Positions 1,686 through 41,902 of a stretch of DNA of 64,000 nt are shown piece after piece. Each line of letters opens with the position of its first letter. Position 1 is the first letter of the stretch. The stretch lies in contig JALONQ010000002.1 in assembly GCA_025454835.1 (NCBI GenBank), positions 133,483 through 197,482 of the forward strand, written 5' to 3'. The stretch is from Bacteroidota bacterium (GTDB taxonomy: Bacteria > Bacteroidota > Ignavibacteria > UBA10030). The translations under genes were made by a program, and so were the position numbers. The notes beneath the pieces are model-generated. The model was not told the origin of the DNA and did not search any database. It was given only the letters and a program-made list of their open reading frames with translations.

Positions 1686-2990
1686 GTGCGTCTAAGAACC
1701 CTCGTATTGCTCGGGGCGGCGAGCTTCGTGCTGCTGCTGGCGTTGAACGCGTATCTGCAGCCCGCCCTGGGTCCGTCCAACAGCTCCGAGCCGGTCAGGG
1801 TCTTCTACGCGGACCACATCTCTCGCGCGCACCGCGAGCTCATCGCCGAATTCAATCAGCTCCATGCCGGCCGCATCGAGGTGGTGCCCGTGGACCTTCC
1901 GTTCGAGAAGTTCTCGACGAACGAACGCAAGGAGCTGCTGGCCCGGTCGCTGCGCAGCAAGAGCGAGAAACTGGACGTGTTCGCCGTGGACCTGATCTGG
2001 GTCTCACGATTCGCGCGATGGGGGGAGCCGCTCGACGCATACTTTCCTCCGTCGGTGCGGGCGGGCTTCATGACGACTGCGTTGAAGTCGTGCATCGTGG
2101 GTGATACACTCGTGGCGATGCCTCTCTACCTCGATGTTGGCGTCCTCTACTACCGACGCGACCTTATTCAAAGACTCCCAGATGGCGCGGCCGTCGAGCG
2201 GCGATTACAGTCGGGGATCACGTGGGAGGAGTTGGAGTCGCTGCGGAAGCGCCTGGGCTACGAGCGTCGGCCGTTCTTCGTCTACCCTGCCAAAGCCTAC
2301 GAAGGGCTCATCTGTTGTTTCCTCGAGCACGCGATGGGGGACGACAGTACCTACCTCGACCAGAACCGGCTCGCGATGACGGAACCCGCAGCCGGCAGGG
2401 CATTGGCGCGCCTGGTCCAGTTCGTGCGCAAAGGGTGGACGCCGGCCGCCGCGACCGGGTTCGATGAGAACCAAAGCTATCGGTGGTTCCTCGACAACGA
2501 TGCCGTGTTCGTACGCGGCTGGCCGAACTTCATCGAAAACTTCTCCGGCTTCTATCCCGACACGTCCAAGCTCCGCGCCGTGGCGCGCGCTCCCCTGCCG
2601 CACAGCCGGGGCGGCTCGTCCCGCTCGGTGTTTGGCGGTTGGAACCTGATGATCTCGCGTGCGTCGTCGAAGAAGGCCGAAGCCGTCGAGTTCATCAAGT
2701 TCCTTCAGTCGCCCCGGTCGCAGCGGCTCCTGTTCGAGTTGAGCGGCTACATCCCGGTGCACGCCGAGGTGTACCGCGACAAGAGCCTCATCGCCGAGCA
2801 CCCGGAGCTATCGCTCTACCACGCGCTGGTACAGCGCGGGTTCCACCGGCCGATGATCGTCGATTACACCCGAACGTCGGACATCGCTTCACACTTCCTC
2901 CACCGGGCGATCCGCGGTGACCTCACCGTCGACGACGCTCTTCGCCAGGCCGACGCCATGATCCGTTCCAACTCGGTGTTGCTCAAATGA
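1686..2990 (+). CDS. Extracellular solute-binding protein (sugar SBP, family 1-like) with N-terminal membrane anchor
   Basis: LDVFAVDLIWVSRFA, AMPLYLDVGVLYYRRDL, YEGLIC, AVFVRGWP, GGWNLMI, AVEFIKFL. Hydrophobic N-terminus after GTG 1686 with no lipobox Cys. ATGA overlap with the next gene. Confidence 0.8.
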   Translation: MRLRTLVLLGAASFVLLLALNAYLQPALGPSNSSEPVRVFYADHISRAHRELIAEFNQLHAGRIEVVPVDLPFEKFSTNERKELLARSLRSKSEKLDVFAVDLIWVSRFARWGEPLDAYFPPSVRAGFMTTALKSCIVGDTLVAMPLYLDVGVLYYRRDLIQRLPDGAAVERRLQSGITWEELESLRKRLGYERRPFFVYPAKAYEGLICCFLEHAMGDDSTYLDQNRLAMTEPAAGRALARLVQFVRKGWTPAAATGFDENQSYRWFLDNDAVFVRGWPNFIENFSGFYPDTSKLRAVARAPLPHSRGGSSRSVFGGWNLMISRASSKKAEAVEFIKFLQSPRSQRLLFELSGYIPVHAEVYRDKSLIAEHPELSLYHALVQRGFHRPMIVDYTRTSDIASHFLHRAIRGDLTVDDALRQADAMIRSNSVLLK

Positions 2991-4489
2991 GGCCCGAGAT
3001 CCAGGCACGGTTTGCCGCCCTGCTCCAGCCGCTGCGCAAGTACCGGTTCGAGCTCCGGCATCTTACGGTTCTGCTCCTGGTGTTGATCGGCTTCCAGGTC
3101 ATCGTGCTCTTTCTGAATCAGCGGTCTCTGCACGTCGTCTTCGACCAGACCCAGCAATGGTATCGGCAGGATGCGGCGGAGCGCATCGCCAATCTGTCCG
3201 CCACGTCGCTGGAGCTGCTGTTGGAGTCGCATCCGACCCGTCAGGCGATGAGCGACGACCGCGAGCTCCAGATCGTCCAGGAATTCAACATCATCTTCAG
3301 CCAGCAGCTGCTCGACAAGAATGTCCAGAGCGTCTGCATCATCATCTCGGAGCCTGCCGGCCTCTCGATCGTTGACGACGGCCAGCAGCTATTCGACGTC
3401 TTCTATCGGGAGGGAGTTCGCCCGCCGTCCGACGTGAGCGGCCACGCCGAGGCGCTCCAATGGTACCGGACGCTCGAGCCCCGGCTGCGGCAGGCGGAAC
3501 AGATCACGACCGTCGTCGACGACCATGGCGGTTTTCACGTCTTCGTGCCATTCGTGCCGCAGGGGGAATTCTCAGGCGCCGTTTACATGAAGAGTTCCCC
3601 CGACCTGTCCTTCCTGACCGGAGCCCTGGCCTCGATCAACGACCAGACGGCGCTTGTCTATGCAGCGCTCATCTTCATCGGGTTCCTCGGCATGTACTTC
3701 ATCTCCACCCGCACGCTCCGGGAGCGAAACGACGCCCTCCAAGCGCTCTTCGAGGAGCAGAAGCGCCATCTGGCGGATGAGATCCACCACCAGAAAGAGA
3801 CTGTGTTCGCCAAGCGCATCTATCACGCCCACCACAAAGCGGAGAAGATCAGCGGCTTCATCAAAGAAGACCTGCGGACGATGACCACCAGAAACATGGA
3901 GGAGGTGCGCCATCGGATCGGCAAATACGCCAGCTTCGTCGCCCGGGTCATCTACGACATGAAGTGGTACGACCCCCCGATTCAAACGGTCCGGGGGCCG
4001 ATGTTCTCGACCGACATCAACGAGGTGCTCCGATTCATCGTGGACCACGTCTTCCGTCGTGTCGCGGACGGCAGGGACGCGTGTCGATTCGACCTCGATC
4101 TCGATGACCGGTTACCGAGGGTCGCGGTCAACGAGTATGTGCTGTGGGAGATCATCGAGCCGATCCTGCAGAATGCTCTTGACCATGCGAACGTGTCGGG
4201 CGTCGTCGTCCAGGTGCGCACGACCTTCCACGCGACAACGCGGCGCGCCACGATCGTGGTCGAGGACAACGGCCGCGGCGTTCGCAACGATCTGCTCCAG
4301 GCCGACGAACGGAAGGTCCAGCGCCTCTTTTTGGAGCATGTCAGCGCGGCGACCCCCGGCGCGAAAGAGCATTCCGGATACGGCTGCTTCATCGCCCACG
4401 AGATCGCCACCCAACGGCTCGGCTGGTCGCTGACCGCCGAGAATATCCCGGGCAGCGGGGCCCGGATCACCTTCGTTCTCACGGCGTAA
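2987..4489 (+). CDS. Membrane sensor histidine kinase with atypical H-box
   Basis: Two TM segments flank a periplasmic domain. HATPase motifs N (ILQNALDHA), G1 (VEDNGRGV) and G2-like (HSGYGC). His-rich RIYHAHHKAEK where the H-box is expected. Confidence 0.8.
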   Translation: MRPEIQARFAALLQPLRKYRFELRHLTVLLLVLIGFQVIVLFLNQRSLHVVFDQTQQWYRQDAAERIANLSATSLELLLESHPTRQAMSDDRELQIVQEFNIIFSQQLLDKNVQSVCIIISEPAGLSIVDDGQQLFDVFYREGVRPPSDVSGHAEALQWYRTLEPRLRQAEQITTVVDDHGGFHVFVPFVPQGEFSGAVYMKSSPDLSFLTGALASINDQTALVYAALIFIGFLGMYFISTRTLRERNDALQALFEEQKRHLADEIHHQKETVFAKRIYHAHHKAEKISGFIKEDLRTMTTRNMEEVRHRIGKYASFVARVIYDMKWYDPPIQTVRGPMFSTDINEVLRFIVDHVFRRVADGRDACRFDLDLDDRLPRVAVNEYVLWEIIEPILQNALDHANVSGVVVQVRTTFHATTRRATIVVEDNGRGVRNDLLQADERKVQRLFLEHVSAATPGAKEHSGYGCFIAHEIATQRLGWSLTAENIPGSGARITFVLTA

Positions 4490-4496
4490 GCCAGCC

Positions 4497-5957
4497 ATGC
4501 TCGTCGGCCGTCCAGTACGGATCCTATTGATCGAAGACGAAGCGTTCGACGTGCGCCGCGTTCATCGGACGCTCCAGCCGTTCGCCGAGCAGCTGCAGGT
4601 GCGACATGTCATCTCGAACGGCGACGCGGCGATCGAGCTCGTTCGTGCCGAAGGGAACGAGCTGGACGTCGTCATCATGGATATGCAGATCGCCGGGGGC
4701 GTCATGGGGGAGGCGCTGATCCGCGAGATCAAGCGGTGGCAGCCGTCTCTACCGATCATCGTCATCACGAAGATGACCGTGAACATCGCTGACGCCGATT
4801 TCGCCAACCGGCTGCTCAAGTCGGGCGCATATTGGTACTGCACGAAGTATCCGACGGATATCGAAGAAGCGATCTATCAACCGACGGACTTCATCCTGAG
4901 CATCGTCAATGCGGCCGAACAGCGACGACTCCGGCGCGAACAAGACCGCACCGAGGGCAAGCTCGTGCGAAATGCCGAAGAGGTGCTTGCCCGAACGCGG
5001 CTGATCGGGGTATCGCCCGCGATCCAGAAGGTCCGTGCGCAAGTGCGCCAGGTGGCTTCGACCGACGCCTCGGTGCTCATCAGCGGCGCGTCGGGCACGG
5101 GCAAAGAACTGGTTGCCTCTCAGATCCATTATCAGAGCGCTCGCCGGCTCGAGAACTACGTGCCGATCAACTGCGGCAGCATCCCCGATCACCTCGTGGA
5201 AAGCGAGCTCTTCGGACACGAGAAGGGATCGTTCACCGGCGCCGACCGAGCAAAGATGGGTCTCTTCGAAGCCGGACATCGCGGAACGATCTTCCTTGAC
5301 GAGGTCGCCGAGCTTCCTCTTCCGGCGCAGGTGAAGCTCCTTCGCGTGCTGCAGGACGGGGAGATCGAAAAGATCGGCCGGACGCACCGTACGAAGGTCG
5401 ACGTCCGCATCGTCGCGGCGACGAACAAGATCTTGCAAAGCGAGATCACAGCCGGCCGCTTCCGCGAGGACCTGTTCTATCGGTTGAATGTCGTTCCGAT
5501 CCATCTTCCGTCGCTCAAAGACCGAAGAGAGGACGTGCCGGTCCTGTGGGAGCACTTCGTTCGACAGATGACCTTTGATATGGGGCACGAGTCGCCGACA
5601 ACGGAGGACGGTGCCTATCAGGTGCTGACGAGCTATGCATGGCCGGGCAATGTGCGAGAGATGAAAAACGTGATCCAACGTCTTCTGCTGATGGGAGAGT
5701 CCGTGATCACGGCGGATGTCGTTTCCGAGTACCTCACGCTGGCCCCCATCAACCCGCCCCCCGATGGTCCGCACACGATCGCCTTTGGAAGCGCCGACGA
5801 ACTGCTGCCGCTCAGGGAAATGGAGCGCCTCTTCCGTCTCCGGTACTTCCAGTTTGTGCGCTCCCATTCAGCTTCCGATGCCGAGGCTGCCAAGAAGCTC
5901 GGTCTTGCCCCTCCGAACTACCACCGCATGAGCAAGGACCTCGGTCTGAAGGACTGA
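4497..5957 (+). CDS. Sigma-54-dependent response regulator (NtrC-family enhancer-binding protein)
   Basis: Receiver (ILLIEDE, VVIMDMQ, T, K). AAA+ with GASGTGKE, ESELFGHEKGSFTGA, DEVAE, FREDLFYRLNV, WPGNVRE. C-terminal Fis-like HTH (AAKKLGL). Confidence 0.93.
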   Translation: MLVGRPVRILLIEDEAFDVRRVHRTLQPFAEQLQVRHVISNGDAAIELVRAEGNELDVVIMDMQIAGGVMGEALIREIKRWQPSLPIIVITKMTVNIADADFANRLLKSGAYWYCTKYPTDIEEAIYQPTDFILSIVNAAEQRRLRREQDRTEGKLVRNAEEVLARTRLIGVSPAIQKVRAQVRQVASTDASVLISGASGTGKELVASQIHYQSARRLENYVPINCGSIPDHLVESELFGHEKGSFTGADRAKMGLFEAGHRGTIFLDEVAELPLPAQVKLLRVLQDGEIEKIGRTHRTKVDVRIVAATNKILQSEITAGRFREDLFYRLNVVPIHLPSLKDRREDVPVLWEHFVRQMTFDMGHESPTTEDGAYQVLTSYAWPGNVREMKNVIQRLLLMGESVITADVVSEYLTLAPINPPPDGPHTIAFGSADELLPLREMERLFRLRYFQFVRSHSASDAEAAKKLGLAPPNYHRMSKDLGLKD

Positions 5958-6151: not shown

Positions 6152-6167
6152 TTGGTACGGCAATTGA
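6152..6167 (+). promoter_or_regulatory. Candidate sigma-54 (-24/-12) promoter TTGGTACG-GCAA-TTGA
   Basis: GG-N10 spacing and TTG correct, but the -12 position reads GA instead of GC. About 110 nt upstream of ATG 6278. Confidence 0.4.
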
Positions 6168-6277
6168 GGTGAGTGGCGTGTCTTGCAGGTATCCTCGGCT
6201 GCCGGTCGTCGGAGCCGTCGGTGTTCCTGGCAGCCAACCCGCACATTTCTCATCCACCGTCTCAAAGGAGACCGCAC

Positions 6278-8788
6278 ATGCGGATGCTACAGTTCCTACT
6301 GGTGATCATGGTATTGCTCACGGTCCCGGTGTTCGGCCAGACCGTGATCGAGTCCTTCGATTCACCTAAGCCCGACTCGTTGTTCTACTTCGCGTCGGAG
6401 GGTTCTCCCACCTACATCCGAATGACGCAAGATGTGGCGGACAAGCAGGAGGGAATCGCTTCGACCAATATTCGGACGGCCATCGGCGCGTTTCATGCGT
6501 GGGGTTCTTTTTCCCAGATCGAATCGCGCTGGGTTGCCGGCACCATGGTGGACATCAGCATCAGCGATTCGGTGAGCATCTGGATCAAAGTGACCGAAGC
6601 GCCGAAGATCCCGGCGAACATGGTGATGCGCATCCATCTGATCGACTCGACATCGGGCGAGCCGCGAGAAGACTGGCTGTATGAGAACGCAACCATTCTG
6701 GATGCCGTCAGCGGCTGGGTGAACCTGAAGATCCCACTTACCGAGCGTGCGACGGACGGTTCGGTCGTCCCGAACGACGCCGGTTTTGTGTCTGCCCCGA
6801 CGGGATGGGGCGGATTCACGTACAACAACAAGAAGTTCGACCGCGACAAGATCGTTGGCTGGAAGATCGCATTCGTCACATCGGGCTGGGATCCGACCAA
6901 CGGCATTCCGGCCGACTCACTCGAGTTCAAGCTGGACGGTTTCCAGCGGTTCGGTCTGCGTGCCGTTCCTGCCATCATGTTCAACGGTCGCGACCTGAAC
7001 ATGAACATGAGTTCGTGGTCGTGGGGTCAGTCATCGGTGACCGTGGAGGCCAACGCCGGTCCGCTTCCGAAGACCAATGCCATCTTGTGGACACAGGGCA
7101 ACGAATACGGCAACGGCTGGACAGGCATGGGCTATGACGTCGGCAAGAATGCCGGCGCGCCGTTCAACCTGGCCGGTGGCTGGGTGGTGGACAGCGTCAC
7201 GTTCAAGATGAAGACCGACGCGGGTGTCGGACCGATCCGCCTGCAGTTCGAGACCGGCCCGTGGGGCTCCACGACGGGCAAACGCGGACATGTCTTCACT
7301 CCGAACAGCGACGGCAACTGGCATACGTATGCCTTTGCGCTTCGTGACTTTGTTGTGAAGGACGGTGCCACGAACTTCGATTCGTCGACCATCACCACGA
7401 TCGGTTTCATGGCCGAAGGGTCGGGCGTGGCCGGCAAGAAGTTGTATATCACGGATTGGTGGACCGGACGTCCGGTGTTTGACGTCATTCCTCCTGACGC
7501 CCCGTCGGGTCTGGCTGGTGCGGGCACGGGCTTTGTGAATCTCGTGACCTGGAACGACGTTCCGAACGAGCCTGGCATTCGCTACAACGTCTTCTTCGCC
7601 GACCATCCGTGGACCGCTGTCGAGGATTCGACGGTCGAAGACCTGCCGCCGTACAACATTACGAGCGCTGTTGCGACACATCCGTTGCGCGTCCCGAAGA
7701 CCGACGCCAACGTATCGCTCTACTATGGTGTCGTCTCCAAGGATCCTTCGGGCAACGAGAGTTCGCCCGTCCTCATGAGCTCGCCGGTGACGACGCTGGC
7801 GAAGGGTGTTCCTACGATCTCGAAGACAGGCCCGGCCTCATTCGTGGCCGACGGCGACCTGAGCGAGTGGTCGTCGATCACCCCCTTCGTGCTCTCGACG
7901 GTGTCTGGCACGGCGCACGCCGTTCCGAACTTCCCCATCACGAGCGACGCCGACCTGTCGGCGAACGCCTATGTGGCGGTGGATGCCACGTATATCTACG
8001 TGGCGTTCGATGTGACGGACGACATCGTGCTGGCCGCGACGACGGGCAACGACTACGAACAGGACTGCCCGGACATCTTCTTCGGCACGTACGACTGGCG
8101 CGGCAAGCGGCATTCGGCCTATCAGCGCGGCGCAAAGCCGGACTACCATCTGCGCTTCTCGCGACACCGCATCTGGATCGACAACGGCGGCGTGCGGATC
8201 GACACGATCAGCGCGAATTATGCCTGGACAGAGAAGCTGTTGTCGCCCGGCTATGTCGTCGAAGCACGGATCGCCTGGGCGGACCTGGCCACGAAGTTGG
8301 CGGGCAATGACATCGTCTTCTCGCCGGTCGAAGGCATGCGCATCCCGATCGATTTCGCCATCAACGATCGCGATTCAGACGTTCGTAACGGTATTTTGGT
8401 CTATTCGATCCTGTCCAATGACGATTCGTACAAAGCCCCGTTCTACTGGACCTATACTTGGATCGGCGACAAGTCGACCACGACGTCGGTTGAGCAGGTG
8501 AGCGACGTTGCGACCTCGTTCGAGTTGGGCCAGAACTATCCGAATCCCTTCAACCCCAGCACCGAGATCCGGTATAGCGTTCCGACCTCCGGACCGGTGG
8601 CCCTGCGGGTGTACGACATGATGGGCCGCGAGGTCGAGACACTCGTCGACCGGACCATGGAAGCCGGTTCGTATGTCGTGACGTTCAACGCCGAGCGGTC
8701 CGGCCGAGCCATGGCCAGCGGCGTGTACTTCCTCCGGCTTGACGCGGGTGCCCACACCGCGATCCGGAAGATGCTGCTCGTGAAGTAA
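6278..8788 (+). CDS. Secreted non-catalytic multi-domain carbohydrate-binding protein (two CBM-like sandwiches, FnIII-like, CBM9-like, T9SS type-A CTD)
   Basis: Signal peptide MRMLQFLLV...PVFG after RBS AAGGAG. FVADGDLSEW...AYVAVDATYIYVAFDVTDD...IDFAINDRD is CBM9-like. CTD ELGQNYPNPFNPSTEIRY...SGVYFLRL...KMLLVK. No catalytic GH motif recognised. Confidence 0.7.
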   Translation: MRMLQFLLVIMVLLTVPVFGQTVIESFDSPKPDSLFYFASEGSPTYIRMTQDVADKQEGIASTNIRTAIGAFHAWGSFSQIESRWVAGTMVDISISDSVSIWIKVTEAPKIPANMVMRIHLIDSTSGEPREDWLYENATILDAVSGWVNLKIPLTERATDGSVVPNDAGFVSAPTGWGGFTYNNKKFDRDKIVGWKIAFVTSGWDPTNGIPADSLEFKLDGFQRFGLRAVPAIMFNGRDLNMNMSSWSWGQSSVTVEANAGPLPKTNAILWTQGNEYGNGWTGMGYDVGKNAGAPFNLAGGWVVDSVTFKMKTDAGVGPIRLQFETGPWGSTTGKRGHVFTPNSDGNWHTYAFALRDFVVKDGATNFDSSTITTIGFMAEGSGVAGKKLYITDWWTGRPVFDVIPPDAPSGLAGAGTGFVNLVTWNDVPNEPGIRYNVFFADHPWTAVEDSTVEDLPPYNITSAVATHPLRVPKTDANVSLYYGVVSKDPSGNESSPVLMSSPVTTLAKGVPTISKTGPASFVADGDLSEWSSITPFVLSTVSGTAHAVPNFPITSDADLSANAYVAVDATYIYVAFDVTDDIVLAATTGNDYEQDCPDIFFGTYDWRGKRHSAYQRGAKPDYHLRFSRHRIWIDNGGVRIDTISANYAWTEKLLSPGYVVEARIAWADLATKLAGNDIVFSPVEGMRIPIDFAINDRDSDVRNGILVYSILSNDDSYKAPFYWTYTWIGDKSTTTSVEQVSDVATSFELGQNYPNPFNPSTEIRYSVPTSGPVALRVYDMMGREVETLVDRTMEAGSYVVTFNAERSGRAMASGVYFLRLDAGAHTAIRKMLLVK

Positions 8789-8800
8789 CCATCCTGGAGA

Positions 8801-8830
8801 GGGGCGCACCACGGTGCGCCCCTTCCCTTT
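8801..8830 (+). terminator. Strong stem-loop GGGGCGCAC-CACG-GTGCGCCCC followed by TTCCCTTT, between the CBM gene and the TonB receptor
   Basis: Perfect 9-bp stem. The U-tract is interrupted, so it is either a leaky terminator or an RNA-stabilising hairpin. Confidence 0.6.
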
Positions 8831-8843
8831 TCCTGGCCGACCT

Positions 8844-11567
8844 ATGAATGCTCTTCGTGGCTCCCTCATGCGAGGCGGACGTGTCGCCGGTCTCCTGTCG
8901 ACGCTCCTCTTCGTTTCCGTCCTTCTCTGGGCGGGCACGACCGGCAAGATCGCCGGCTCGATCACCGACGCGTTGACCGGCGAAGCGCTCGTCGGGGCGA
9001 ACGTCATGCTCGTTGGGACGAGTCTCGGCACGACGACCGATCTCGACGGCTACTACACGATCAACAATATCCCTCCGGGGGTGTATCAGGTCGTGGTGAG
9101 CTATGTCGGCTATCGTCGGACGACCGTGACGAACGTCCAGGTGCGCATCGATCAAACCACGCGCGTCGACGCGAAGCTGCAGTCAGAGGCGATCGAAGGT
9201 GAGGAGGTCATCGTACGGGCCGAAAGGCCGCTGGTGCAGAAGGACCTCACCTCGAGTTCGGTGACGCTCTCGGCGGATGACCTCAAGCGCATTCCGACGG
9301 AGAATCTGAGCCAGGTCGTCAATATCCAGGCGGGAGTCGTCGGCGGTCACTTCCGCGGCGGCCGTTCGAACGAAGTGGCTTACCTCATTGACGGCGTTTC
9401 CGTCGTCGACCCGTTCAACGGGCGGATGAGCGTCGAGGTCGACAACACGACCATCCGTGAGATGGAGGTGATCAGCGGTACGTTCAACGCCGAATACGGC
9501 CAGGCGATGTCGGGCGTCGTCAACATCGTGACGCAGGAGGGCGCTTCGGATTTCCACGGTTCGCTGTCGCTCTATGCGGGCGACTACGTCACGTCGAACG
9601 ACGGCACCTACATGAATCTGGCGAAGATCGAACCGTTCCGGACGGCCAACATCCAGGGAAGTCTCAGCGGTCCGATCGCCGGGGGCCTGTCGTTCTTCGG
9701 GAGCCTGCGATCGTATCAGGATGAAGGCTATCTCTACGGCCGGCGTTTGTTCTTGACGTCGGACCGGTCTCCGTATGCCCTCAGGGATCCCTTGGGCAAT
9801 TCGATCCTCGGGCCCGACGGCCAGGCGATCTATGTCATTCCGCAATCGGGGGACGGGGCGTACGTCTCGATGAACCCCTCGAAGCGCAATACGGCCAACG
9901 GCAAGCTGTCGTACAGCATGGGGTATCTCAAGTTCAGCGGCAGCCTTCTGTGGGAAGACCACTGGAACAAGTACTACGACCACGGCTTCTCGCGGACGCC
10001 GGACGGCACGACGAACCACTATCGAACGAACTGGGTGTCTTCGTTCCAGGTGACCCATTCGCCGACGGCGAATACGTATCAGACGTTCAAGGCTTCCTAC
10101 AACCAGTTTGACTACAAAGGTTACGTGTACGAGAACGAGCTCGATCCCCGCTACGTCGACCCGTCGCAAGGCACGCCGATCTCGAACTACACCTTCCGGT
10201 CCGGCGGCCAGGCGTCTGATCGGTATGACCGGCACACACGAACGTGGATCGGCCAATGGGCGCTTTCGTCGCAGCTCGATGCGCACCACAAGGTCGGTGT
10301 GGGCATCGAAGGGCGCCGGCATGAGATCTACAACCACTGGAAGACGATCCTGAACCGGAATACGGTCGTCACGGACAGTTCTGGCGCTCTCGTCTTTGAG
10401 ATCGGATATCCGGACGTCGGCACATCCGACCACACGCTCTATTACAAGGAGCCGTACGAGTTCTCGGCCTACGTGCAGGACAAGATCGAATACGACATCA
10501 TGATCATCAACGCGGGAGTTCGGGTCGACTACTTCAACCCTAACGCCTCGTACCCGCTCGACCTGCGCAATCCGTCGGGGAACCCCGAGTTCCCGAACGC
10601 CGGCGTTTCCAAAAAGACCTCGGCCAAGGTCCAAGTGAGCCCCCGCCTTGGCGTCTCGTTCCCGATCACCGATGAAGGGATCATTCACTTCTCGTACGGC
10701 CATTTCTTCCAGATCCCGAGTTTCGAGAACCTCTATCTGAATTCGAACTACCTCGTGAACCAAGGCGACAACCTCTCGAGCGTGATAGGCAATCCCGACC
10801 TCGAGGCGCAGCGGACGGTGATGTATGAGCTGGGCCTCCAGCAGGTCCTGTTCGGCCAGGTGGGTATCGATTTCACGATCTACTATCGTGACATCCGGAA
10901 TCTTCTCGGCATGGAGATCCTCAGCACGTACGAAGGATTCCGGTTCTCTCGCTTCATCAATCGGGACTATGCCAACGTCAAGGGATTCATTTTCAGCGTG
11001 GAGCGCCGGTTCATCGGCGGATTCAGCGTCCGGGCTGACTATACGTATCAGATCGCCGAAGGCAACGCCTCCGATCCGTACGCCGTCTTCTACAACAACC
11101 AGTCCGACCCTCCGACCGAGACGAACAAGAAGGTCGTTCCGCTCGACTGGGATCAGCGTTCGACGCTCAACGTGTCCGTCAGCGTCGGCGATCCGGGCGA
11201 CTGGAACGTCGGCCTCATCGCCCAGTATGGCAACGGCTTCCCGTACACCGAAGATGTCCGCGTCTCGAACGGGTTGAGGTTCGAGAACGGCGGTAAAAGG
11301 CCGACGACGTTCAACGTCGACCTGCGCGCCGAGAAGACCGTGGCCTTCGGTCCGGTCGACCTGACGGTATTCGCCCTCGTCTACAATCTTCTCGATACGA
11401 GGAACGAATACGGCGTCAACGCGGCGAGCGGTCGCGCGAACATCGACCTCTACACCTATCTGGCGGGCCGGATCATCGGCCTGAACACGATCGACGAATA
11501 CGTCAACAACCCGGCCTCGTTCTCGGCGCCGCGCCAGGTGCGGTTGGGTGTCACGTGGAATTTCTGA
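8844..11567 (+). CDS. TonB-dependent receptor with N-terminal carboxypeptidase-regulatory-like domain (not SusC-type)
   Basis: TTGKIAGSITDALTGEALVGANV, plug (HFRGGRSNEVAYLIDGVSV, GTFNAEYGQAMSGVVNIVT), SPRLGVSFPIT, C-terminal beta-signal RLGVTWNF. Alternative start 8868. Confidence 0.92.
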   Translation: MNALRGSLMRGGRVAGLLSTLLFVSVLLWAGTTGKIAGSITDALTGEALVGANVMLVGTSLGTTTDLDGYYTINNIPPGVYQVVVSYVGYRRTTVTNVQVRIDQTTRVDAKLQSEAIEGEEVIVRAERPLVQKDLTSSSVTLSADDLKRIPTENLSQVVNIQAGVVGGHFRGGRSNEVAYLIDGVSVVDPFNGRMSVEVDNTTIREMEVISGTFNAEYGQAMSGVVNIVTQEGASDFHGSLSLYAGDYVTSNDGTYMNLAKIEPFRTANIQGSLSGPIAGGLSFFGSLRSYQDEGYLYGRRLFLTSDRSPYALRDPLGNSILGPDGQAIYVIPQSGDGAYVSMNPSKRNTANGKLSYSMGYLKFSGSLLWEDHWNKYYDHGFSRTPDGTTNHYRTNWVSSFQVTHSPTANTYQTFKASYNQFDYKGYVYENELDPRYVDPSQGTPISNYTFRSGGQASDRYDRHTRTWIGQWALSSQLDAHHKVGVGIEGRRHEIYNHWKTILNRNTVVTDSSGALVFEIGYPDVGTSDHTLYYKEPYEFSAYVQDKIEYDIMIINAGVRVDYFNPNASYPLDLRNPSGNPEFPNAGVSKKTSAKVQVSPRLGVSFPITDEGIIHFSYGHFFQIPSFENLYLNSNYLVNQGDNLSSVIGNPDLEAQRTVMYELGLQQVLFGQVGIDFTIYYRDIRNLLGMEILSTYEGFRFSRFINRDYANVKGFIFSVERRFIGGFSVRADYTYQIAEGNASDPYAVFYNNQSDPPTETNKKVVPLDWDQRSTLNVSVSVGDPGDWNVGLIAQYGNGFPYTEDVRVSNGLRFENGGKRPTTFNVDLRAEKTVAFGPVDLTVFALVYNLLDTRNEYGVNAASGRANIDLYTYLAGRIIGLNTIDEYVNNPASFSAPRQVRLGVTWNF

Positions 11568-11589
11568 CCCGAAGGTCCAGGAGCTGACA

Positions 11590-14500
11590 GTGATCCGAAC
11601 GTTCATTCTCTCGCTGCTGTTCGCCGGCACTGCCGTTGCCGTCGCTCAGCCCGTCCTGACGCCGTCCGTCGATTCCCTCCATATCGGAAGCGTGAGGGTG
11701 GGCCAGCCGTTGACGTCAAGCCAGCTCTCCGTGCGGAACACCGGCTCGGGGCTGCTGACGGTCACGGCTATCGCCTCGTCGAACTTCGCCGTCAAGATCG
11801 GCGCGTCGCTGGCGGTCATCGCCCCGGGCGATTCGTTCATCGTCACCGTCACCTGGCGGCCGCGAAAGGCGGGGTTCGACACGGCGTCCGTCACGTTCAC
11901 CAGCAATACCTCGGCCCCGCCGCGGCGCGTTCGGTTGACCGTTATCGGCGACGTTGTGCTCGACCCCACGACGGCGGCCTACCGCAATGACCGCATCGGC
12001 GAGGTCACTGCCCGTCGCGAAGGCACCCTGAACGGCAATCTCATTTCGACGCTGTTCTACAACCACGGTGAAGTGGCGAAGTGGAACTTCCAGCCGTCCG
12101 TGGTCTGGCCGAAAGGAACGAACCACTCGTACATGGACGGCGTCGCCGTCCTCATCGGTGCACGCACGATCGCACCGGGCAACGGGAATGTCATCTCTCC
12201 GATCCAATCGGCGTATCGGGAAGAGGTGGACAAAGACCCGGTCACCGGACTGGAATGGGTCCTGCAACCGCTGCCAGGCTATGACAACCCGGGCCGACGG
12301 CCGAGCCCCACGCCGGCCGTGAACCGCGACACCTCGACATTTCCGCGGGTCTGGCCGGCGGCGCTCGGCCTCGACGCCACCTGGAACGGATTCTGGTACG
12401 GCTACTTCGGCCGGGGCGTCACGAATGCCGATCTCGAAACGTTCTACGTGATGGACGATTCGAAAGACAAGGAATTTACCAGACCGCCGTTCCTCTACTA
12501 CCCGATCGCTGGGGATTCTGCGCGCGGTGGGCTCGGCTTGCGGGTGGAGGTCCGCGGCTTCCAGTGGTCGCACGTGCTGGCCGAAGACATCATCTTCTGG
12601 CACTACGACATCGTCAACATCTCCGACTGGGACTACGACTCGACGGCCTTCGGTTTTTACACCGATCCCGGCGTTGGCGGTCCGAGCGCGCCGGGCAACA
12701 GCGCGCGGTATAACTCGCAGTTGGACCTGGCCTATGCTTGGAACACCAGCGGCATGGGCGTGCCCGATAACTGGAAGACCGGCTACGTCGGATATGCCTA
12801 CCTCGAAAGCCCGGGAAACGCGCTCAACGGCATTGACGACGACGAAGACGGAATGATCGACGAGCGGCGCGACGACCGCATCGACAACGACGGCGACTGG
12901 GTGTCGTTCACCGACCTGAACGCCAGCGCGACCTGGGACCCGGGCGAACCTTTGAACGACGACCTGGGCCGTGACGGCGTCGGTCCCACGGACCTGCAGT
13001 ATTCCGGTCCGGATGTGGGCGAAGGGGACGGCGTGCCGACTCCGGGCGAGCCGAACTTCGACCAGACAGACAAGGATGAGTCTGATCAGATCGGGCTTTC
13101 ATCGGCCGCCATCTGGGGGCTGGCCGACAAGGGTCCATCGGGCGGCTGGCCGAAGAACGACGAGATCATGTGGCAGAAGATGAACAGCGGCTTCCGCGAC
13201 ACGGCCATTGCCAACACGAACATCAGCATGACGTTCTCTTCCGGCCCGTTCCCGTTGCGCCAAGGACGCCGCGAACGCTTCTCGATGGCCCTGGCGATGG
13301 GGGAGGACCTGGACGATCTCATCTTTAACAAGGAGACGGTACAGGAGATCTACAACGCAAACTACAACTTCTCGAAGCCTCCATACACGCCTCGGCTGAC
13401 AGCTGTGCCCGGCAACGGACGCGTCTTCCTTTACTGGGACAACGTGGCCGAGCGGTCCGTGGACCGGTTCATGGGATTGCAAGATCCCTCCGATCCGTCG
13501 AAGGGCTACAAGCGGGATTTCGAGGGATACCTGCTGTATCGCAGTACGGAAGCGGAGTTTAACGACATCAAGATCATCACCGATTCGAAAGGCTCGGGCA
13601 AGTACTGGAAGCCCATTGCGCAATGGGACCTTGCTGACAGTATCGCCGGCCCCGATCCGGTCGGTATCAACGGGGCGAGCTTCTGGCGCGGCTCGAATTC
13701 GGGGCTTGTCCATTCCTTCATCGACACGACGGTCCTGAACGGAGTCCGCTACTACTATGCGCTCGTGTCGTACGACATGGGTGATCCAAAGCGCGGGACG
13801 AAGGGGTTGCAGCCGACGGAGTGCACCAAGATCATCACAGAGGACTTTGCCGGAAACCTGAAGTTCATCGATATCAATTGTGCCGTCGTCATGCCCAACG
13901 GCCCGGCCGCTGGATACCAACCGCCCCAAACGGAGGGGGACCTGAGAAAAGTCGCATCGGGCCTGGGCACCGGATCGATCGGCCTGATCATCCTTGATCC
14001 GAGCCAGGTGATCGACGGTGCGCGCTACACGGTCAGGTTCAAGGCCGATTCAACGATCCCCACCTACCGAACGCGTTCCTTCGACCTGCTCCGGACGAGC
14101 GGGACCTTGACAGACACGCTCCATCGGGGCTTGGATTCCTCGAGCATCGGCGAAGGCCGTTTCTCGCCGCCATTCGACGGCATGGTCCTGTCCGTTGCCA
14201 ACGACACCGCCGTCGTCCTGAATGACACCGCGACAGGCTGGGTGGTGGGTCGGAGCAACCTCTTCATGCGGGTGGCACGCGACGTCACGATCGGTTCGCG
14301 TTCGATCGCGTGGCCGACCGACTATGAGCTCCAGTGGTATCCGACGATCGTCGATACGACGGCGCTCAACGCCCCGGCATCGCGGTATCCGCTGCTGCCC
14401 GTCAACTTCACCGTCCGAAATCTCTACACCGGAGGACGGTCGAAGTTCATCATCCATGACGTCGACAACTCGAACTCTCTGACGGTCGGCGACACGATCC

Positions 14501-15018
14501 GGGTGTTGGAGCAGTTTGTCAGCGCGTCGAACTTCAAGTTCACGTGGAAACTCACGTACGGCCGCCCGTTCGGGGCCGACACGCTCTTTCCGCAGCCCGG
14601 GGACCGATACGTGATCAAGACCCGTCGGCCCTTCCTGACGGGCGACGAGTTCCAGTTCACGACGCGCGGATCGCGCACCGACCTGGAGGAGGCCAAGAAC
14701 AGCCTCGACCGGATCTCGGTCGTACCGAACCCGTACATCGCGACGGCACCGTGGGAGCGACGGTCGCTCTATGTGACAGGCCGAGGGGAGCGAAAGATCG
14801 AGTTCAAGAACCTGCCCGCGCTGTGCACGGTGCGCATCTACACCGTGAGCGGGGGACTTGTGGCGACGCTCCGGAAGGACTCATCGCCGATGGACGGCTC
14901 GCTGCCGTGGAACCTGATCTCGGATGACGGCATGGAGGTGGCGTACGGCCTCTACATCTATCACGTCGAAGCTCCCGGCCTCGGTGAGCACGTCGGCAAG
15001 TTTGCGATCGTGAAGTGA
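11590..15018 (+). CDS. Large secreted uncharacterised protein: Ig/ASH-like domain, conserved core, acidic Ca-binding-like repeats, FnIII-like domain, divergent T9SS-like CTD
   Basis: Signal peptide from GTG 11590. VRNTGSGLLTVTAI (ASH-like), NGIDDDEDGMIDE/IDNDGDW, PRLTAVPGNGRVFLYWD. C-terminus ISVVPNPY...KIEFKNLP..CTVRIYTVSG.LV...WNL...VAYGLYIYHV...KFAIVK. Confidence 0.7.
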   Translation: MIRTFILSLLFAGTAVAVAQPVLTPSVDSLHIGSVRVGQPLTSSQLSVRNTGSGLLTVTAIASSNFAVKIGASLAVIAPGDSFIVTVTWRPRKAGFDTASVTFTSNTSAPPRRVRLTVIGDVVLDPTTAAYRNDRIGEVTARREGTLNGNLISTLFYNHGEVAKWNFQPSVVWPKGTNHSYMDGVAVLIGARTIAPGNGNVISPIQSAYREEVDKDPVTGLEWVLQPLPGYDNPGRRPSPTPAVNRDTSTFPRVWPAALGLDATWNGFWYGYFGRGVTNADLETFYVMDDSKDKEFTRPPFLYYPIAGDSARGGLGLRVEVRGFQWSHVLAEDIIFWHYDIVNISDWDYDSTAFGFYTDPGVGGPSAPGNSARYNSQLDLAYAWNTSGMGVPDNWKTGYVGYAYLESPGNALNGIDDDEDGMIDERRDDRIDNDGDWVSFTDLNASATWDPGEPLNDDLGRDGVGPTDLQYSGPDVGEGDGVPTPGEPNFDQTDKDESDQIGLSSAAIWGLADKGPSGGWPKNDEIMWQKMNSGFRDTAIANTNISMTFSSGPFPLRQGRRERFSMALAMGEDLDDLIFNKETVQEIYNANYNFSKPPYTPRLTAVPGNGRVFLYWDNVAERSVDRFMGLQDPSDPSKGYKRDFEGYLLYRSTEAEFNDIKIITDSKGSGKYWKPIAQWDLADSIAGPDPVGINGASFWRGSNSGLVHSFIDTTVLNGVRYYYALVSYDMGDPKRGTKGLQPTECTKIITEDFAGNLKFIDINCAVVMPNGPAAGYQPPQTEGDLRKVASGLGTGSIGLIILDPSQVIDGARYTVRFKADSTIPTYRTRSFDLLRTSGTLTDTLHRGLDSSSIGEGRFSPPFDGMVLSVANDTAVVLNDTATGWVVGRSNLFMRVARDVTIGSRSIAWPTDYELQWYPTIVDTTALNAPASRYPLLPVNFTVRNLYTGGRSKFIIHDVDNSNSLTVGDTIRVLEQFVSASNFKFTWKLTYGRPFGADTLFPQPGDRYVIKTRRPFLTGDEFQFTTRGSRTDLEEAKNSLDRISVVPNPYIATAPWERRSLYVTGRGERKIEFKNLPALCTVRIYTVSGGLVATLRKDSSPMDGSLPWNLISDDGMEVAYGLYIYHVEAPGLGEHVGKFAIVK

Positions 15019-15025
15019 GGCGAAC

Positions 15026-16045
15026 ATGAAACGACTGATCATTGGAGTGCTCGTCAGCCTCGCCGTCGCCGGAACGAGCGCCGTGGGGCAGAATGTCTCG
15101 AAACGCGGTACCACGGCCGCGACCTTCCTGTCGATCTCGCAAGGGGCGCGTGGCATGGCCATGGGGGGCGCGTTCGTCGCCGTCGTGAACGATCCGTCGG
15201 CGATGTACTGGAACCCCGCCGGCTTGACCGAGGTCGAAGGGATCAGTTTCCTCGTCGACAATACGACTTGGATCGCGGACATCCACTACAATTACATCGG
15301 CGCCACCGTATCGGCCGGGCCGGTCGGCGTGCTCGGGCTCAACGTGACGATGTCGAACATCGCCGACATGGCCGTGACGACGGTCGACAAACAGGATGGG
15401 ACCGGTGAGGTCTTTGGCGTGTCGGACCTGGCGGTCGGCCTGTCGTACGCGATCAAGTTGACCGATGCGTTCTCCATCGGCTTCACGCCGAAGTTCGTCC
15501 ACCAGAAGATCTGGAAGATGAGCGCCACGGCGTTCGCGATCGATCTTGGCGTCAAGTACCGGACGCCGTTCGAAGGCTTCACCCTCGGCATGTCGATCTC
15601 GAACTTCGGCACGAAGATGCAGATGCAAGGGAACAATTCGCTGGTACTGTACGATCCTGATCCGTCCGGCTCGGGCAACAATGGTCGCATCCCGGCGCAG
15701 CTGGCGACGGAGGAATGGGAACTGCCGCTGAACTTCCGCGTGGGTTTGGCGTACGATCTGCCCCTCGAAGAGATCGGCCGGCTGACCCTGGCGGCCGACG
15801 CGCAACACCCCAGCGACGACTACGAGAGCGTGAGCGCCGGCGGCGAGTTTGAGTTCAACGAGGTGCTTTACATTCGGGGAGGATATAAAACGTTGTTCCT
15901 CACTGATTCGGAAGAAGGGTTGGCACTCGGCCTCGGCGTCCGGCAATACGTCATCGGCAACGTCCGCCTGGGACTCGACTACGCCTACCAGGAGTTCGCC
16001 CGCCTGGCCAGCGCCCAGAAGATCACCCTCAGCATCCAGTTCTGA
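15026..16045 (+). CDS. PorV/PorQ-family outer-membrane beta-barrel (UPF0164-like)
   Basis: GTTAATFLSISQGARGMAMGGAFVAVVNDPSAMYWNPAGL, DLAVGLSYA, LPLNFRVGLAY, alternating beta-strand pattern, terminal Phe (ITLSIQF). Confidence 0.85.
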   Translation: MKRLIIGVLVSLAVAGTSAVGQNVSKRGTTAATFLSISQGARGMAMGGAFVAVVNDPSAMYWNPAGLTEVEGISFLVDNTTWIADIHYNYIGATVSAGPVGVLGLNVTMSNIADMAVTTVDKQDGTGEVFGVSDLAVGLSYAIKLTDAFSIGFTPKFVHQKIWKMSATAFAIDLGVKYRTPFEGFTLGMSISNFGTKMQMQGNNSLVLYDPDPSGSGNNGRIPAQLATEEWELPLNFRVGLAYDLPLEEIGRLTLAADAQHPSDDYESVSAGGEFEFNEVLYIRGGYKTLFLTDSEEGLALGLGVRQYVIGNVRLGLDYAYQEFARLASAQKITLSIQF

Positions 16046-16063
16046 CGCGTATCGGAGCCACTC

Positions 16064-17863
16064 ATGATCGATCGAAAGCTGTTGCGGACCTTCGCCCTCG
16101 CACTCGTCTCCGTCATCACGGCGGACGCACAACCTGCCGCTGAACGCGTGGATAAACTTCTTCAGTCCATGACCCTGGAGGAAAAGGTCGGCCAGATGAC
16201 GCAGGCTGACTACGGTGCCCTCAAAGGCCGCACTGACGACGTCACAAAGTATGCGCTTGGGTCCGTGTTGTGGGGAGGCGGGACCGAGTTGCCGGAGATC
16301 TCGTCCGAGCACTGGGCCCGCGCGTCGGGTGAGCTGCAGGGACTCGCGGCCAAGACGCGTCTGCGCATTCCGCTCGTGCTGGGCATCGACGCGGTGCACG
16401 GTCACAACAACCTGACCGACGCGGTCATGATGCCGCATAACATCGGGCTCGGCGCGACTCGCGACGCCGCGATCGTCGAGGCCGTTGCCCGCGTGACAGC
16501 GGTCGAGATGCAAGCGACGGGGATGAACTGGGCGTTCGCGCCGTGTGTCGCCGTCGCGCGCGACGAACGCTGGGGCCGGACGTATGAGAGCTTTGGAGAG
16601 GATCCAGACCTCGTCCGCCAGATGGGCGTGGCCCACCTCCGCGGTCTGCAGGGCGCGTCGCTTTCGAACCCGACGTCGGCATTGGCCTGCGTGAAACACT
16701 ACGTCGGCGACGGTGGAACGACGGGCGGCAAAGACCAGGGAAACACGGAGGTTGACGAAGCGACGTTGCGCCGCATCCATCTGCCGGGTTACATCGACGC
16801 GATCAAGGCCGGTGCCCGCTCGATCATGGCGTCGTACAACAGCTGGAACGGCAACAAGCTGCACGGTCATCGCTACCTCATGACCGACGTGTTGAAGGGG
16901 GAGCTCAAGTTCTCGGGGTTCATCGTATCGGATTGGGCGGGGATCGATCAGCTGCCTGGAACGTATCGCGACCAGATCGCGGCTTCGGTCAACGCCGGTC
17001 TGGATATGGCCATGATCCCCAACGGTCCGGGAACGCCGAACAACTACGTGGACTTCATCACCGAGCTGACGAAGCTCGTCAACGAAGGCGTCGTGCCGAT
17101 GTCTCGCATCAACGATGCGGTGCGACGGATCCTGACGGTCAAGATGGAGATGGGATTGCTCCGCCGCTCGCCGGGCCCTGCCGTCGGACTGGAGACGGTC
17201 GGTTCGAAGGCCCACCGGAAGGTGGCCCGCGAGGCCGTGCGCAAGTCGATCGTTCTGCTGAAGAACGAGAACAAGGTCCTGCCGCTGTCGAAAACATCGA
17301 AACGGATCACCGTGGCCGGTCCTGCGGCCGACGATATGTCCGTACAGTGCGGCGGCTGGACGATCGATTGGCAAGGGAAGGAAGGGCGCCGTGTGATCGG
17401 AGGGACAACGATCCTTCACGCGGTCGAACAAAGCGTCGGCGCTGGGGCGACCGTGACTTACTCGACGAACGGAACGGGTGCCGACAGTGCGGATGCCGTC
17501 ATCGTGGTCGTCGGTGAGGAGCCGTACGCTGAGATGTTCGGCGACCGCAAGGACCTTCGATTGAGCGATGCCGACCGGGCCGTGATCGAGACCGTGTTCG
17601 CCACCGGACGACCGACCATCGTCGTCTTGCTGTCCGGGCGGCCCATCATCATCGACGACCTCATGACGAAGTGCCATGCCCTGGTCGCGGCCTGGCTGCC
17701 GGGCTCCGAAGGGGCCGGCGTGACCGATGTCCTGTTCGGTGACGTCGCTCCTACCGGAAAGCTGTCACACACGTGGCCTCGGTCGATGGACCAGGTCCCG
17801 GTCAACGTCGGTGACCCGAATATCGACCCGCTGTTCCCATATGGCTACGGCCTGAGCTACTGA
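16064..17863 (+). CDS. GH3 beta-glucosidase / exo-beta-glucanase (barley ExoI-like), signal peptide I
   Basis: [41 protein letters not shown], nucleophile [24 protein letters not shown]. Confidence 0.93.
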
Positions 17864-17918
17864 CACCGGGCGCGCCCGGACCACACGAATCTCACCTCCG
17901 ATCCTCCGACAGACACGT

Positions 17919-19229: not shown

Positions 19230-19252
19230 CCGGCCGCACGGGGGCCACGTCC

Positions 19253-25456: not shown

Positions 25457-25460
25457 GCGT

Positions 25461-27296: not shown

Positions 27297-27335
27297 TCGG
27301 CCTTATCGATCAGTTTGGAACAACATACGCCACCA

Positions 27336-28175: not shown

Positions 28176-28181
28176 ACTATC

Positions 28182-31100: not shown

Positions 31101-31280
31101 TGCACCTTGGCGGTCTTCGATTTGCTGGGACGACAGGTGGCTACGCTCATTGATGGAGTCCGGCCGGCGGGAATGCAGATCATTTCGTGGAACGCTTCGG
31201 GCCAGCCGGCGGGCGTGTACTTCTGTCGTCTGCAAACGGCCGGCATTGTCATTGCGCGAAAGCTGGTTTTAGCGCGATAA
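28182..31280 (+). pseudogene. GH3 + FnIII + CARDB-like + F5/8C (CBM32-like) + T9SS CTD gene interrupted by one in-frame TAG at 30747-30749 (or a readthrough gene)
   Basis: ORFs 28182-30749 and 30762-31280 share a frame. Reading through gives MDLDSL*CVEDVTLYWEDAFGKEY, a continuous F5/8C domain, then FPNPFNP CTD. GH3 motifs DGPHGVR, KHFAAN, VVSDW. Confidence 0.75.
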
Positions 31281-31322
31281 TGAGCGGTTGGAATGCCCGC
31301 GTCATTGCAGTACCCTTGAACG

Positions 31323-41893: not shown

Positions 41894-41902
41894 GAGGTTG
41901 TC

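Follow-up and report, generated by a model that had tools for sequence, protein, structure and literature searches.

Here we analyze a 64,000-nucleotide stretch of DNA (hereafter the window; G000:C33:133483-197482) from a 3.2-Mb genome of 62% G+C, whose host belongs to the class Ignavibacteria and is not a classical Bacteroidia owner of polysaccharide utilization loci (PULs). Three consecutive genes of the window encode a substrate-binding protein (SBP), a sensor histidine kinase and an NtrC-family sigma-54 enhancer-binding response regulator (the activator), and a beta-glucan locus lies downstream (Table 1). We judge it likely that this trio is a binding-protein-assisted two-component system and serves as the dedicated sigma-54-dependent switch of the adjacent locus. 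The output half of this reading, namely the activator, an enhancer, a sigma-54 promoter and the regulon, is supported: sigma-54 output onto the locus, which a preliminary description of the same DNA had suggested, is now backed by a conserved upstream activating sequence (UAS) palindrome, a -24/-12 promoter, apparent helical phasing between them and the 5′ ends of RNA contigs.

Conserved putative enhancer and promoter elements precede the CBM9 gene

The proposed first regulated gene encodes a protein secreted through the type IX secretion system (T9SS) that contains a CBM9 carbohydrate-binding module (CBM). Its ATG stands behind AAGGAG, and both the start and this Shine-Dalgarno sequence are kept in the alignment of relatives. 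When the spacer between the activator gene and the CBM9 gene was aligned with those of three relatives sharing 73-84% kinase identity (L008, L009 and L010), two invariant islands, TTATTG-N3-CGATAA and TGGTACG-N4-ATTGA, stood out from diverged flanks. The first corresponds to the palindrome TTATTGTAACGATAA, the proposed enhancer, which is the sole TTAT-N7-ATAA in the whole genome. The second, TGGTACGGCAATTGAG, has the layout of a sigma-54 promoter, lies 68 bp downstream of the UAS centre and predicts a transcription start near 6179. This promoter emerged only through the comparison with relatives: a strict search for TGGCACG-N4-TTGCW with up to two mismatches returned nothing meaningful, with fewer matches than in shuffled sequences, and TGGTACGGCAATTGAG has three mismatches to that pattern.

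Both elements recur across the family. The palindrome was found within 400 nt past the activator gene in 42 of 71 non-redundant loci, against 0.025 expected, often in two copies 21-23 bp apart, and a -24/-12 pattern within 600 nt past the activator gene in 23 of 76 loci, against 0.034 expected. A -24/-12-like element stood 58-96 bp (median 69) from the proximal palindrome in 40 of the 42 palindrome-bearing loci, compared with 21% of random windows. These distances cluster at 58, 68-71, 79-83 and 91, a pattern that we interpret as helical phasing, and the 68 bp of the window fits this series. Across the family, the position of the canonical -12 C is variable (C17/T15/A4/G4), so the TTGA of the window falls within the family range; sigma-54 of these lineages may tolerate bases other than C at this position.

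The RNA evidence consists of assembled contigs from four wetland or sediment metatranscriptomes, which give boundaries and not mapped ends. The CBM9 gene was covered almost continuously and was the best-covered gene, and the 5′-most contig ends in the four metatranscriptomes fell at 6194, 6204, 6210 and 6234. Between 3030 and 6193 none of the four provided any contig coverage, and a few short contigs were all that fell in the SBP gene and in nucleotides 1-45 of the kinase gene. This distribution fits an independent transcription start just upstream of 6194, and it argues against read-through from the trio as well as against an element at 6228 as the only promoter.

That element, TGGCAGCCAACCCGCA (6228-6243), carries GG-N10-GC at the correct spacing, 36 nt 5′ of the CBM9 ATG. 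Its L008 version reads TGGCAGCCAATCTGCA, whereas it is degraded in L009 and absent from L010. We rejected it as the main promoter for this lack of conservation and because three RNA contigs start upstream of it (6194-6210), which leaves it at most a secondary promoter. The gap at 30749-31323 within the locus was likewise rejected as a regulated promoter: it holds only palindromes with two mismatches, located downstream of a weak -24/-12 match and thus in the wrong order. Genes beyond this gap may or may not use the CBM9-gene promoter.

Directly upstream of the UAS, at 6050-6071, lies a perfect 8+8 palindrome, TTCTCGTT-GTTGGG-AACGAGAA. The outer half-sites of this palindrome, TTCTCG/CGAGAA, are identical to the variant half-site of a second UAS described below (39164), and its sequence is partly kept in L008 and L009, though not as a palindrome. 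Possible readings are a degraded second copy of the enhancer, a site for another factor or a hairpin that terminates the regulator transcript.

At the other end of the CBM9 gene, RNA contig coverage drops past ~8790 and is far higher before a terminator-like hairpin (Table 1) than after it. The hairpin is a probable attenuator inside the operon, which would let the cell make more of the surface CBM protein than of the other operon products.

The activator and its sigma factor

The preliminary description had called the activator NtrC-type with a GSFTGA motif, had made the presence of rpoN a check on its proposal, and had placed the three genes of the trio; the activator is of that type, rpoN is present and all three genes lie where it had placed them. 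The activator matches Response_reg (3.3e-12), Sigma54_activat (4.1e-68) and AAA_lid_14 (8.7e-18), and scores 1e-90 to 1e-98 against NorR, NtrC, AtoC and NtrX models, the alignment to the NorR and NtrX models extending to the C-terminal helix-turn-helix (HTH) of Fis type. It contains D62 in a VVIMD strand, GASGTGKE and GSFTGA, a one-residue variant of GAFTGA. It therefore combines a receiver domain with a phospho-acceptor Asp, an AAA+ domain with Walker motifs and a GAFTGA-type loop, and a C-terminal HTH, as NtrC-family proteins do. The gene for sigma-54 itself lies on the same contig (427 bits), so that the genome provides sigma-54 together with a -24/-12 promoter and an upstream enhancer at the target, the -12 C being replaced by A. 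Twelve Sigma54_activat proteins are encoded in the genome, and one of the 12 (C3:129571-130071) lies ~5 kb from an SBP and permease cluster (C3:134784-139646).

The trio is conserved in Ignavibacteria and related lineages

In the window, the kinase ATG overlaps the TGA stop of the SBP gene (ATGA), the coupling that had been noticed at the outset, and the activator start follows the kinase stop by 7 nt. We examined synteny by tblastn with the window proteins against 80 species loci, counting only those whose contig leaves room. The SBP gene was directly 5′ of the kinase gene in 74 of 74 loci, and the activator gene directly 3′ in 69 of 70, the exception being L073 from a Zhuqueibacterota metagenome-assembled genome (MAG). 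The SBP-kinase junction among relatives is mostly -4, -1 or a few nucleotides. This arrangement is far beyond chance.

Kinase homologues number at least 1377 full-length sequences of ~500 aa with ~50% identity and come from MAGs labelled Bacteroidota or Ignavibacteriae, and a scan with one genome per species found a kinase relative in at least 564 species. The closest relatives (84%, 81% and 73% identity) are from Ignavibacteriaceae MAGs; other hosts include Ignavibacteriales, Melioribacter, Rosettibacter primus, Ignavibacterium, Calditrichia and KSB1/Zhuqueibacterota. In an even sample of 401 genomes from the phylum of the window, 54 had a kinase relative (E<=1e-40), all from the class of the window or one other family, with one to three copies per genome and a single copy in the genome of the window. 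Some contigs with the trio are filed as Synechococcus (L040), Deltaproteobacteria (L065), Caldisericaceae (L031) and Chitinophagaceae (L023, L027, L028, L041 and L048) MAGs; given the otherwise tight distribution of the kinase family, these contigs are probably mis-binned or mislabelled.

The association with TonB-receptor and carbohydrate-active enzyme (CAZyme) genes, whose conservation the preliminary description had left to be checked, extends to the relatives. Where 4 kb or more follows the activator gene (56 non-redundant loci), 45 loci carry homologues of the window's carbohydrate genes downstream; 25 have TonB-receptor, Ig-like, CBM9 or PorV-like genes, and 21 have glycoside hydrolases (GHs) of families GH16, GH3, GH5 or GH9. 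Pfam-annotated neighbourhoods of related loci agree with this carbohydrate setting.

A proposed second target and a cultured relative

A second UAS-like palindrome and a second sigma-54-like promoter, 108 bp apart, lie on the minus strand before a GH5 gene with CBM6/35 (GH5-CBM6) that is convergent to the same-strand locus and is our proposed second target (Table 1). In the congeneric genome G069, the spacer before the GH5-CBM6 gene keeps the UAS as TTATCACATCGAGAA (GCTTATCA...CGAGAA) and has otherwise diverged; there, TGGCTCAGTAATTGCT occurs 97 bp past the UAS, one helical turn closer than in the window.

In the cultured Rosettibacter primus the trio is not beside CAZymes. Its genome contains the tandem palindrome at four sites, compared with none for the reversed control, and all four lie directly upstream of carbohydrate genes: GH5-CBM35-CTD; ROK and GH3 (behind a PorV-like barrel); GH31 and GH13; and GH2-CTD. 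A -24/-12-like element stands at the expected distance in two of the four. At one site (L098, G402:C22:79000-95000), the tandem palindrome and a -24/-12-like site precede the GH31 and GH13 genes, which encode alpha-glucan enzymes. Perhaps the operator controls a glucan/glucose regulon of broader scope, or perhaps it is common to paralogous trios.

A proposed tethered binding protein and a kinase with its own sensor domain

The SBP matches SBP_bac_1 (PF01547, E=1.5e-18) and SBP_bac_8 (E=1.6e-14). It has the fold and sequence of the CUT1 family, and its operon contains no cognate permease and ATPase; as in SBP-dependent two-component systems, the binding-protein gene is linked to a kinase and regulator and not to a transporter. 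Its N-terminal hydrophobic segment, MRLRTLVLLGAASFVLLLALNAY, has no lipobox Cys. The N-termini of this protein and ~80 relatives show a basic stretch followed by ~20 hydrophobic residues, with no lipobox Cys and no consistent A-x-A site, which fits an uncleaved inner-membrane anchor throughout the family. We propose that the SBP is an orphan CUT1-type protein acting as a periplasmic sugar receptor tethered to the inner membrane. Its closest solved relatives are the Thermococcus trehalose/maltose-binding protein (TMBP, 1eu8; 2e-42), Thermotoga MalE3 (6dtq; 2e-40) and Thermus alpha-glycoside-binding proteins, and its ligand is probably a di- or oligosaccharide. Since these structures bind alpha-glucosides, it is the genomic context only that points to a beta-gluco-oligosaccharide.

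The kinase matches HATPase_c (3.8e-12) and no other Pfam family, including HisKA-type families at E<=0.01. A first transmembrane helix (~25-45) is followed by a periplasmic sCache/PDC-like domain (~46-211, ~165 aa) and by a second transmembrane helix continuous with the dimerization and histidine phosphotransfer (DHp) helix. The full-length AlphaFold 2 model (pLDDT 74) shows the first helix, an alpha/beta periplasmic domain, the second helix running into a long helix with the His cluster, a further helix and the catalytic and ATP-binding (CA) domain; no HAMP domain appears in it. The family alignment has an invariant KRIYH(A/T)HHKAEK (H280, H282 and H283), and the N, G1 and G2 boxes (QN..DH, DNGxG and GYG) are invariant as well. 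Profile comparison to a canonical HisKA kinase aligned the CA (ATPase) domain only and not the DHp region, and an assignment of the phospho-histidine by that alignment was therefore ruled out. In Foldseek, the DHp and CA parts of the model matched VicK (4u7o) and WalK (4zki) with TM-scores of 0.76-0.78 over ~230 columns. The kinase thus departs from HisKA (PF00512) in its H-box and DHp sequence and shares the two-helix DHp and CA fold; the earlier label "atypical" holds for its sequence, with no HisKA match and its own KRIYHxHHKAEK motif, but not for its architecture, which is ordinary.

We modelled the sensor domain (residues 46-211) separately from an alignment of 30 sequences, in which 18 positions are invariant. 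Conserved residues of the domain include W58, Y59, E65 and an FHVFVPFVPxGE strand. The model (pLDDT 85.7, pTM 0.81) has the order a1-a2-b1-b2-a3-a4-b3-b4-b5, and its best matches are extracytoplasmic PAS/Cache domains, namely WalK (TM-score 0.5-0.6), CitA and chemoreceptor Cache domains, at E ~1e-3. Together with the two transmembrane helices, this Cache-like model predicts an extracytoplasmic sensor on which a binding protein could dock; AioS and further SBP-assisted receptors are reported to have a domain of the Cache class as well (PMC8050422). A profile built on the periplasmic domain matched only 80 clusters among 1.84 billion representatives, always at residues ~40-205, with full-length matches of ~490 aa. 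Because the profile finds the domain only in this architecture, we regard the domain as private to the trio kinase family.

Proposed mechanism and alternatives

In the proposed circuit, the SBP, anchored by its N-terminus on the periplasmic face of the inner membrane, would bind a small beta-gluco-oligosaccharide that the GH16, GH5, GH9 and GH3 enzymes of the locus release and that enters through the TonB receptor. The loaded SBP would dock on the sCache-like domain of the kinase and change its autophosphorylation at one of H280, H282 and H283, and the kinase would then phosphorylate D62 of the activator. The activator would bind TTATTGTAACGATAA and, as an AAA+ ring, open the promoter at 6153-6168, with a start near 6179, giving a transcript that would read the CBM9 gene and then, past the attenuating hairpin, the operon of TonB receptor, CAZymes, major facilitator superfamily (MFS) transporter and ROK kinase. 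The second, weaker palindrome and promoter (39164/39063, minus strand), conserved in one relative, may put the GH5-CBM6 gene under the same control. The sugar would reach the cytoplasm through the MFS transporter, which leaves the SBP without a transport role.

Several observations weigh against this circuit. Its input half, that is, the ligand and the coupling of SBP to kinase, is inferential. The nearest solved relatives of the SBP bind alpha-linked disaccharides (trehalose/maltose), and in the CuaDSR system the kinase CuaS alone also perceives the sugar (PMC10384115). On the output side, the -12 element of the window reads TTGA and not the canonical TTGC, which makes the promoter reading depend on a lineage-specific relaxation; the UAS is single in the window but doubled in many relatives; and the RNA comes from assembled contigs, not reads, giving a boundary rather than a mapped start and carrying no induction data. 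The second UAS and promoter are spaced outside the 58-96 bp range of the family, and no RNA contigs were found at the GH5-CBM6 promoter. Among relatives, the trio of Melioribacteraceae (Melioribacter-type genomes) adjoins housekeeping genes, and Melioribacter sp. OK-6-Me yielded no strict tandem palindrome.

The sugar could instead be bound by the Cache-like domain of the kinase itself, with the SBP merely sharpening sensitivity or, in its ligand-free form, inhibiting the kinase as CBP inhibits ChiS, and with a core that works without the SBP. Direct binding of small ligands is common among Cache/PDC domains, and the sensor domain found here is of this type and well conserved. CuaSR perceives cellobiose without CuaD, although less efficiently (PMC10384115), so the SBP of the trio may be an enhancer of sensing and not an obligatory receptor; ChiS-CBP, in turn, is among the SBP-kinase pairs that govern a polysaccharide regulon (PMC8050422). 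Yet the SBP gene has never been lost in the 74 loci and mostly overlaps the kinase gene, a retention that argues for an indispensable partner, and we consider sensing by the kinase itself unlikely. The sign of the SBP effect is not readable from sequence alone.

It is very improbable, by comparison, that the SBP is an ordinary transport protein feeding an ABC importer in trans, with its position beside the kinase reflecting only co-regulation. The protein is a full-length SBP_bac_1 member with close transporter-type relatives, and the genome encodes ten permease domains (BPD_transp_1) in five adjacent pairs. However, every one of these pairs is already adjoined by its own SBP_bac_1-type gene, and the trio SBP is the only SBP_bac_1 protein lacking adjacent permeases. 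The preliminary description had called the SBP an orphan and had named cognate ABC partners elsewhere as evidence to the contrary; this genome-wide census bears the orphan status out, as does the setting of the trio, where no ABC permease or ATPase adjoins and the nearest ABC ATPase (40925) is part of an HlyD/efflux cluster. With the ten permease domains as tblastn queries, no permease domain was detected in any of 87 loci, 86 of which, from several phyla, span up to ±10 kb around a kinase relative. A family-wide anchor lacking a lipobox is also unusual for a transport SBP in a diderm, and the locus carries its own MFS importer.

That the trio regulates something else, and that the palindrome and -24/-12 elements belong to a different one of the 12 sigma-54 activators, finds some footing in the assignment of regulator to site by adjacency only and in the trios of Melioribacter and Rosettibacter that are not next to CAZymes, but it is scarcely credible given that the palindrome follows the trio activator gene in 42 of 71 loci from distant lineages, is unique in the genome of the window and, in Rosettibacter, where the trio lies elsewhere, marks only carbohydrate genes.

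Relation to known systems

The logic of a binding protein joined to a kinase and regulator is already established in AioXSR, CuaDSR and ChiS-CBP. The trio is a member of none of these, since each departs from it in SBP class, sensor domain, H-box or output.

AioX-AioS-AioR of Agrobacterium tumefaciens and Rhizobium NT-26 resembles the trio in that the binding protein is encoded with signalling genes and not with a transporter. AioR is an NtrC-type sigma-54 activator that drives the neighbouring operon from a -24/-12 promoter. The periplasmic domain of AioS is sCache-like (PMC8050422), a further likeness to the trio kinase. In contrast, AioX is a Phosphonate-bd protein (PF12974) that binds arsenite, whereas the trio SBP is a CUT1 protein (SBP_bac_1/SBP_bac_8) with a membrane anchor; AioS and the trio kinase are unrelated in sensor domain and H-box; and the AioXSR target is an oxidase in Proteobacteria, compared with a glycan utilization locus in the FCB group. 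The trio thus has no arsenite-specific Phosphonate-bd protein of the AioXSR kind, although it appears to work alike.

CuaD-CuaS-CuaR of Ruminiclostridium cellulolyticum and the related XylFII-LytS-YesN of Firmicutes likewise place a second, transporter-independent sugar SBP beside a two-component system. In response to cellobiose, a product of beta-glucan breakdown, CuaDSR turns on genes for uptake and catabolism; CuaD binds to CuaS, and CuaSR works without CuaD (PMC10384115). It differs from the trio in its Gram-positive lipoprotein setting, its regulator class and the absence of a sigma-54 step, and its target is an ABC importer, unlike the TonB-receptor/T9SS/MFS locus found here.

The third precedent is ChiS-CBP of Vibrio cholerae. 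CBP belongs to SBP_bac_5 and doubles as the binding protein of an ABC transporter, and ChiS is a hybrid kinase whose output is of another kind; in both respects they differ from the trio, and the system is not known to involve a sigma-54 enhancer-binding protein. The likeness is that, in this diderm too, an oligosaccharide-binding protein controls the membrane kinase of a polysaccharide-degradation regulon (PMC8050422).

Bacteroidia PULs are regulated by SusR, hybrid two-component systems (HTCS) or extracytoplasmic function (ECF) sigma/anti-sigma pairs, which, like the trio, are edge-encoded, locus-specific sensors of periplasmic glycan products; their parts are entirely different. Pfam scans of 20 large open reading frames (ORFs) between 6 and 42 kb returned no match for SusD, HTCS, SusR or ECF/anti-sigma. 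The locus thus has a TonB receptor and not the SusC/SusD pair with a SusR, HTCS or ECF regulator of a canonical Bacteroidota PUL. The preliminary description had called the regulatory logic atypical for PULs. This view rests on a comparison with Bacteroidia and is overstated: the trio is common in Ignavibacteria, Calditrichia and KSB1 (at least 564 species), and the similar AioXSR is known.

As far as it is searchable, the literature on Ignavibacteria and Melioribacter or on PUL contexts does not describe the kinase family, the Cache-like sensor domain, the anchored SBP or the operator, and the Caldithrix genome paper does not mention a trio system. Wetlands, sediments and bioreactors harbour Ignavibacteria, Calditrichia and KSB1 as abundant degraders of polysaccharides; to our knowledge, the regulation of glycan use in them is essentially unstudied. 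We advance tentatively, expecting it somewhat more to fail than to hold, the broader proposal that the trio family is the main locus-specific regulator of SusD-less TonB-receptor/T9SS glycan loci in Ignavibacteria, Calditrichia and KSB1/Zhuqueibacterota, characterized by a tethered, non-transport SBP co-receptor, a private Cache-like sensor and H-box, a shared phased operator (TTATCA-N3-TGATAA) and a sigma-54 that does not require the -12 C. If true, the trio would fill, in non-Bacteroidia lineages of the FCB group, the role that HTCS, SusR and ECF pairs have in Bacteroidia. The analysis offers a concrete circuit, with sensor proteins, operator, promoter, predicted start and a two-promoter regulon, that hundreds of species share and that is open to testing in the cultured relatives Rosettibacter, Melioribacter and Ignavibacterium. 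Searches for the palindrome and -24/-12 element may allow regulons and substrate-specific loci to be predicted from MAG sequence. The trio would also add a sugar-sensing, membrane-anchored case to the short list of SBP-dependent kinases with sigma-54 output.

Gene content of the locus and its surroundings

Table 1 Features of the window discussed in the text, in order of position
Feature	Position	Strand	Details
SBP gene	1686-2990	+	GTG start; 434 aa
Kinase gene	2987-4489	+	500 aa; sensor histidine kinase
Activator gene	4497-5957	+	486 aa; NtrC-family sigma-54 enhancer-binding response regulator
GH5/GH3/GH9/GH16 beta-glucan locus, ~30 kb	same strand as trio, downstream	+	Pfam scans
Proposed enhancer (UAS), 15-bp palindrome TTATTGTAACGATAA	6078..6092	.	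family consensus TTATYR-N3-YRATAA
Sigma-54 -24/-12 promoter TGGTACGGCAATTGAG	6153..6168	+	GG 6154-6155; G-A at -13/-12 (6166-6167)
Gene for CBM9-containing T9SS-secreted protein, proposed first regulated gene	6279..8788	+	CBM9_1 1.1e-14, Por_Secre_tail
Terminator-like hairpin, 11 bp (8 GC), T-rich tail	8799..8824	+	after CBM9 gene; overlaps first possible start (8814) of receptor ORF
Rest of locus	8814..36864	+	Pfam scans; sparse RNA contigs over 8500-28499
Gene for GH5 cellulase-family enzyme with CBM6/35 and T9SS tail, proposed second target	36962..38965	-	Cellulase 2.2e-28, CBM_6 1.9e-19, Por_Secre_tail
Second sigma-54-like promoter TGGTCTGGTTCTTGCA	39063..39048	-	position weight matrix score 10.0; ~83 nt 5′ of GH5-CBM6 ATG (38965)
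Second UAS-like palindrome TTATCATTCCGAGAA	39164..39178	-	one mismatch to consensus; one of five 1-mismatch sites in genome

After the CBM9 gene, the same-strand locus continues with a TonB receptor (CarboxypepD_reg-Plug-barrel), a 1156-aa Ig-like protein and a PorV/FadL-like barrel, followed by GH3, MFS, ROK, a CarboxypepD_reg protein, GH9, GH3, a SurA-like protein, GH16 and GH3; the last genes, after the gap at 30749-31323, encode GH3 (PA14), GH5 and GH16-malectin. In total, the same strand carries four GH3, two GH16, one GH9 and one GH5 genes, one MFS transporter and one ROK kinase; Pfam scans found no ABC importer genes among the locus genes.

Upstream of the trio, positions 110-1624 encode a 504-aa polytopic membrane protein with 67% G+C, a Pro/Arg-rich N-terminus and no Pfam match at 1e-3, whose gene ends 61 nt 5′ of the SBP start. 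At the far side, 39356-43216 holds a TetR-like gene (start about 39356) that reads away from the GH5-CBM6 promoter region, and then HlyD-family and ABC-ATPase genes; together these resemble an efflux cluster with no relation to the glucan locus.

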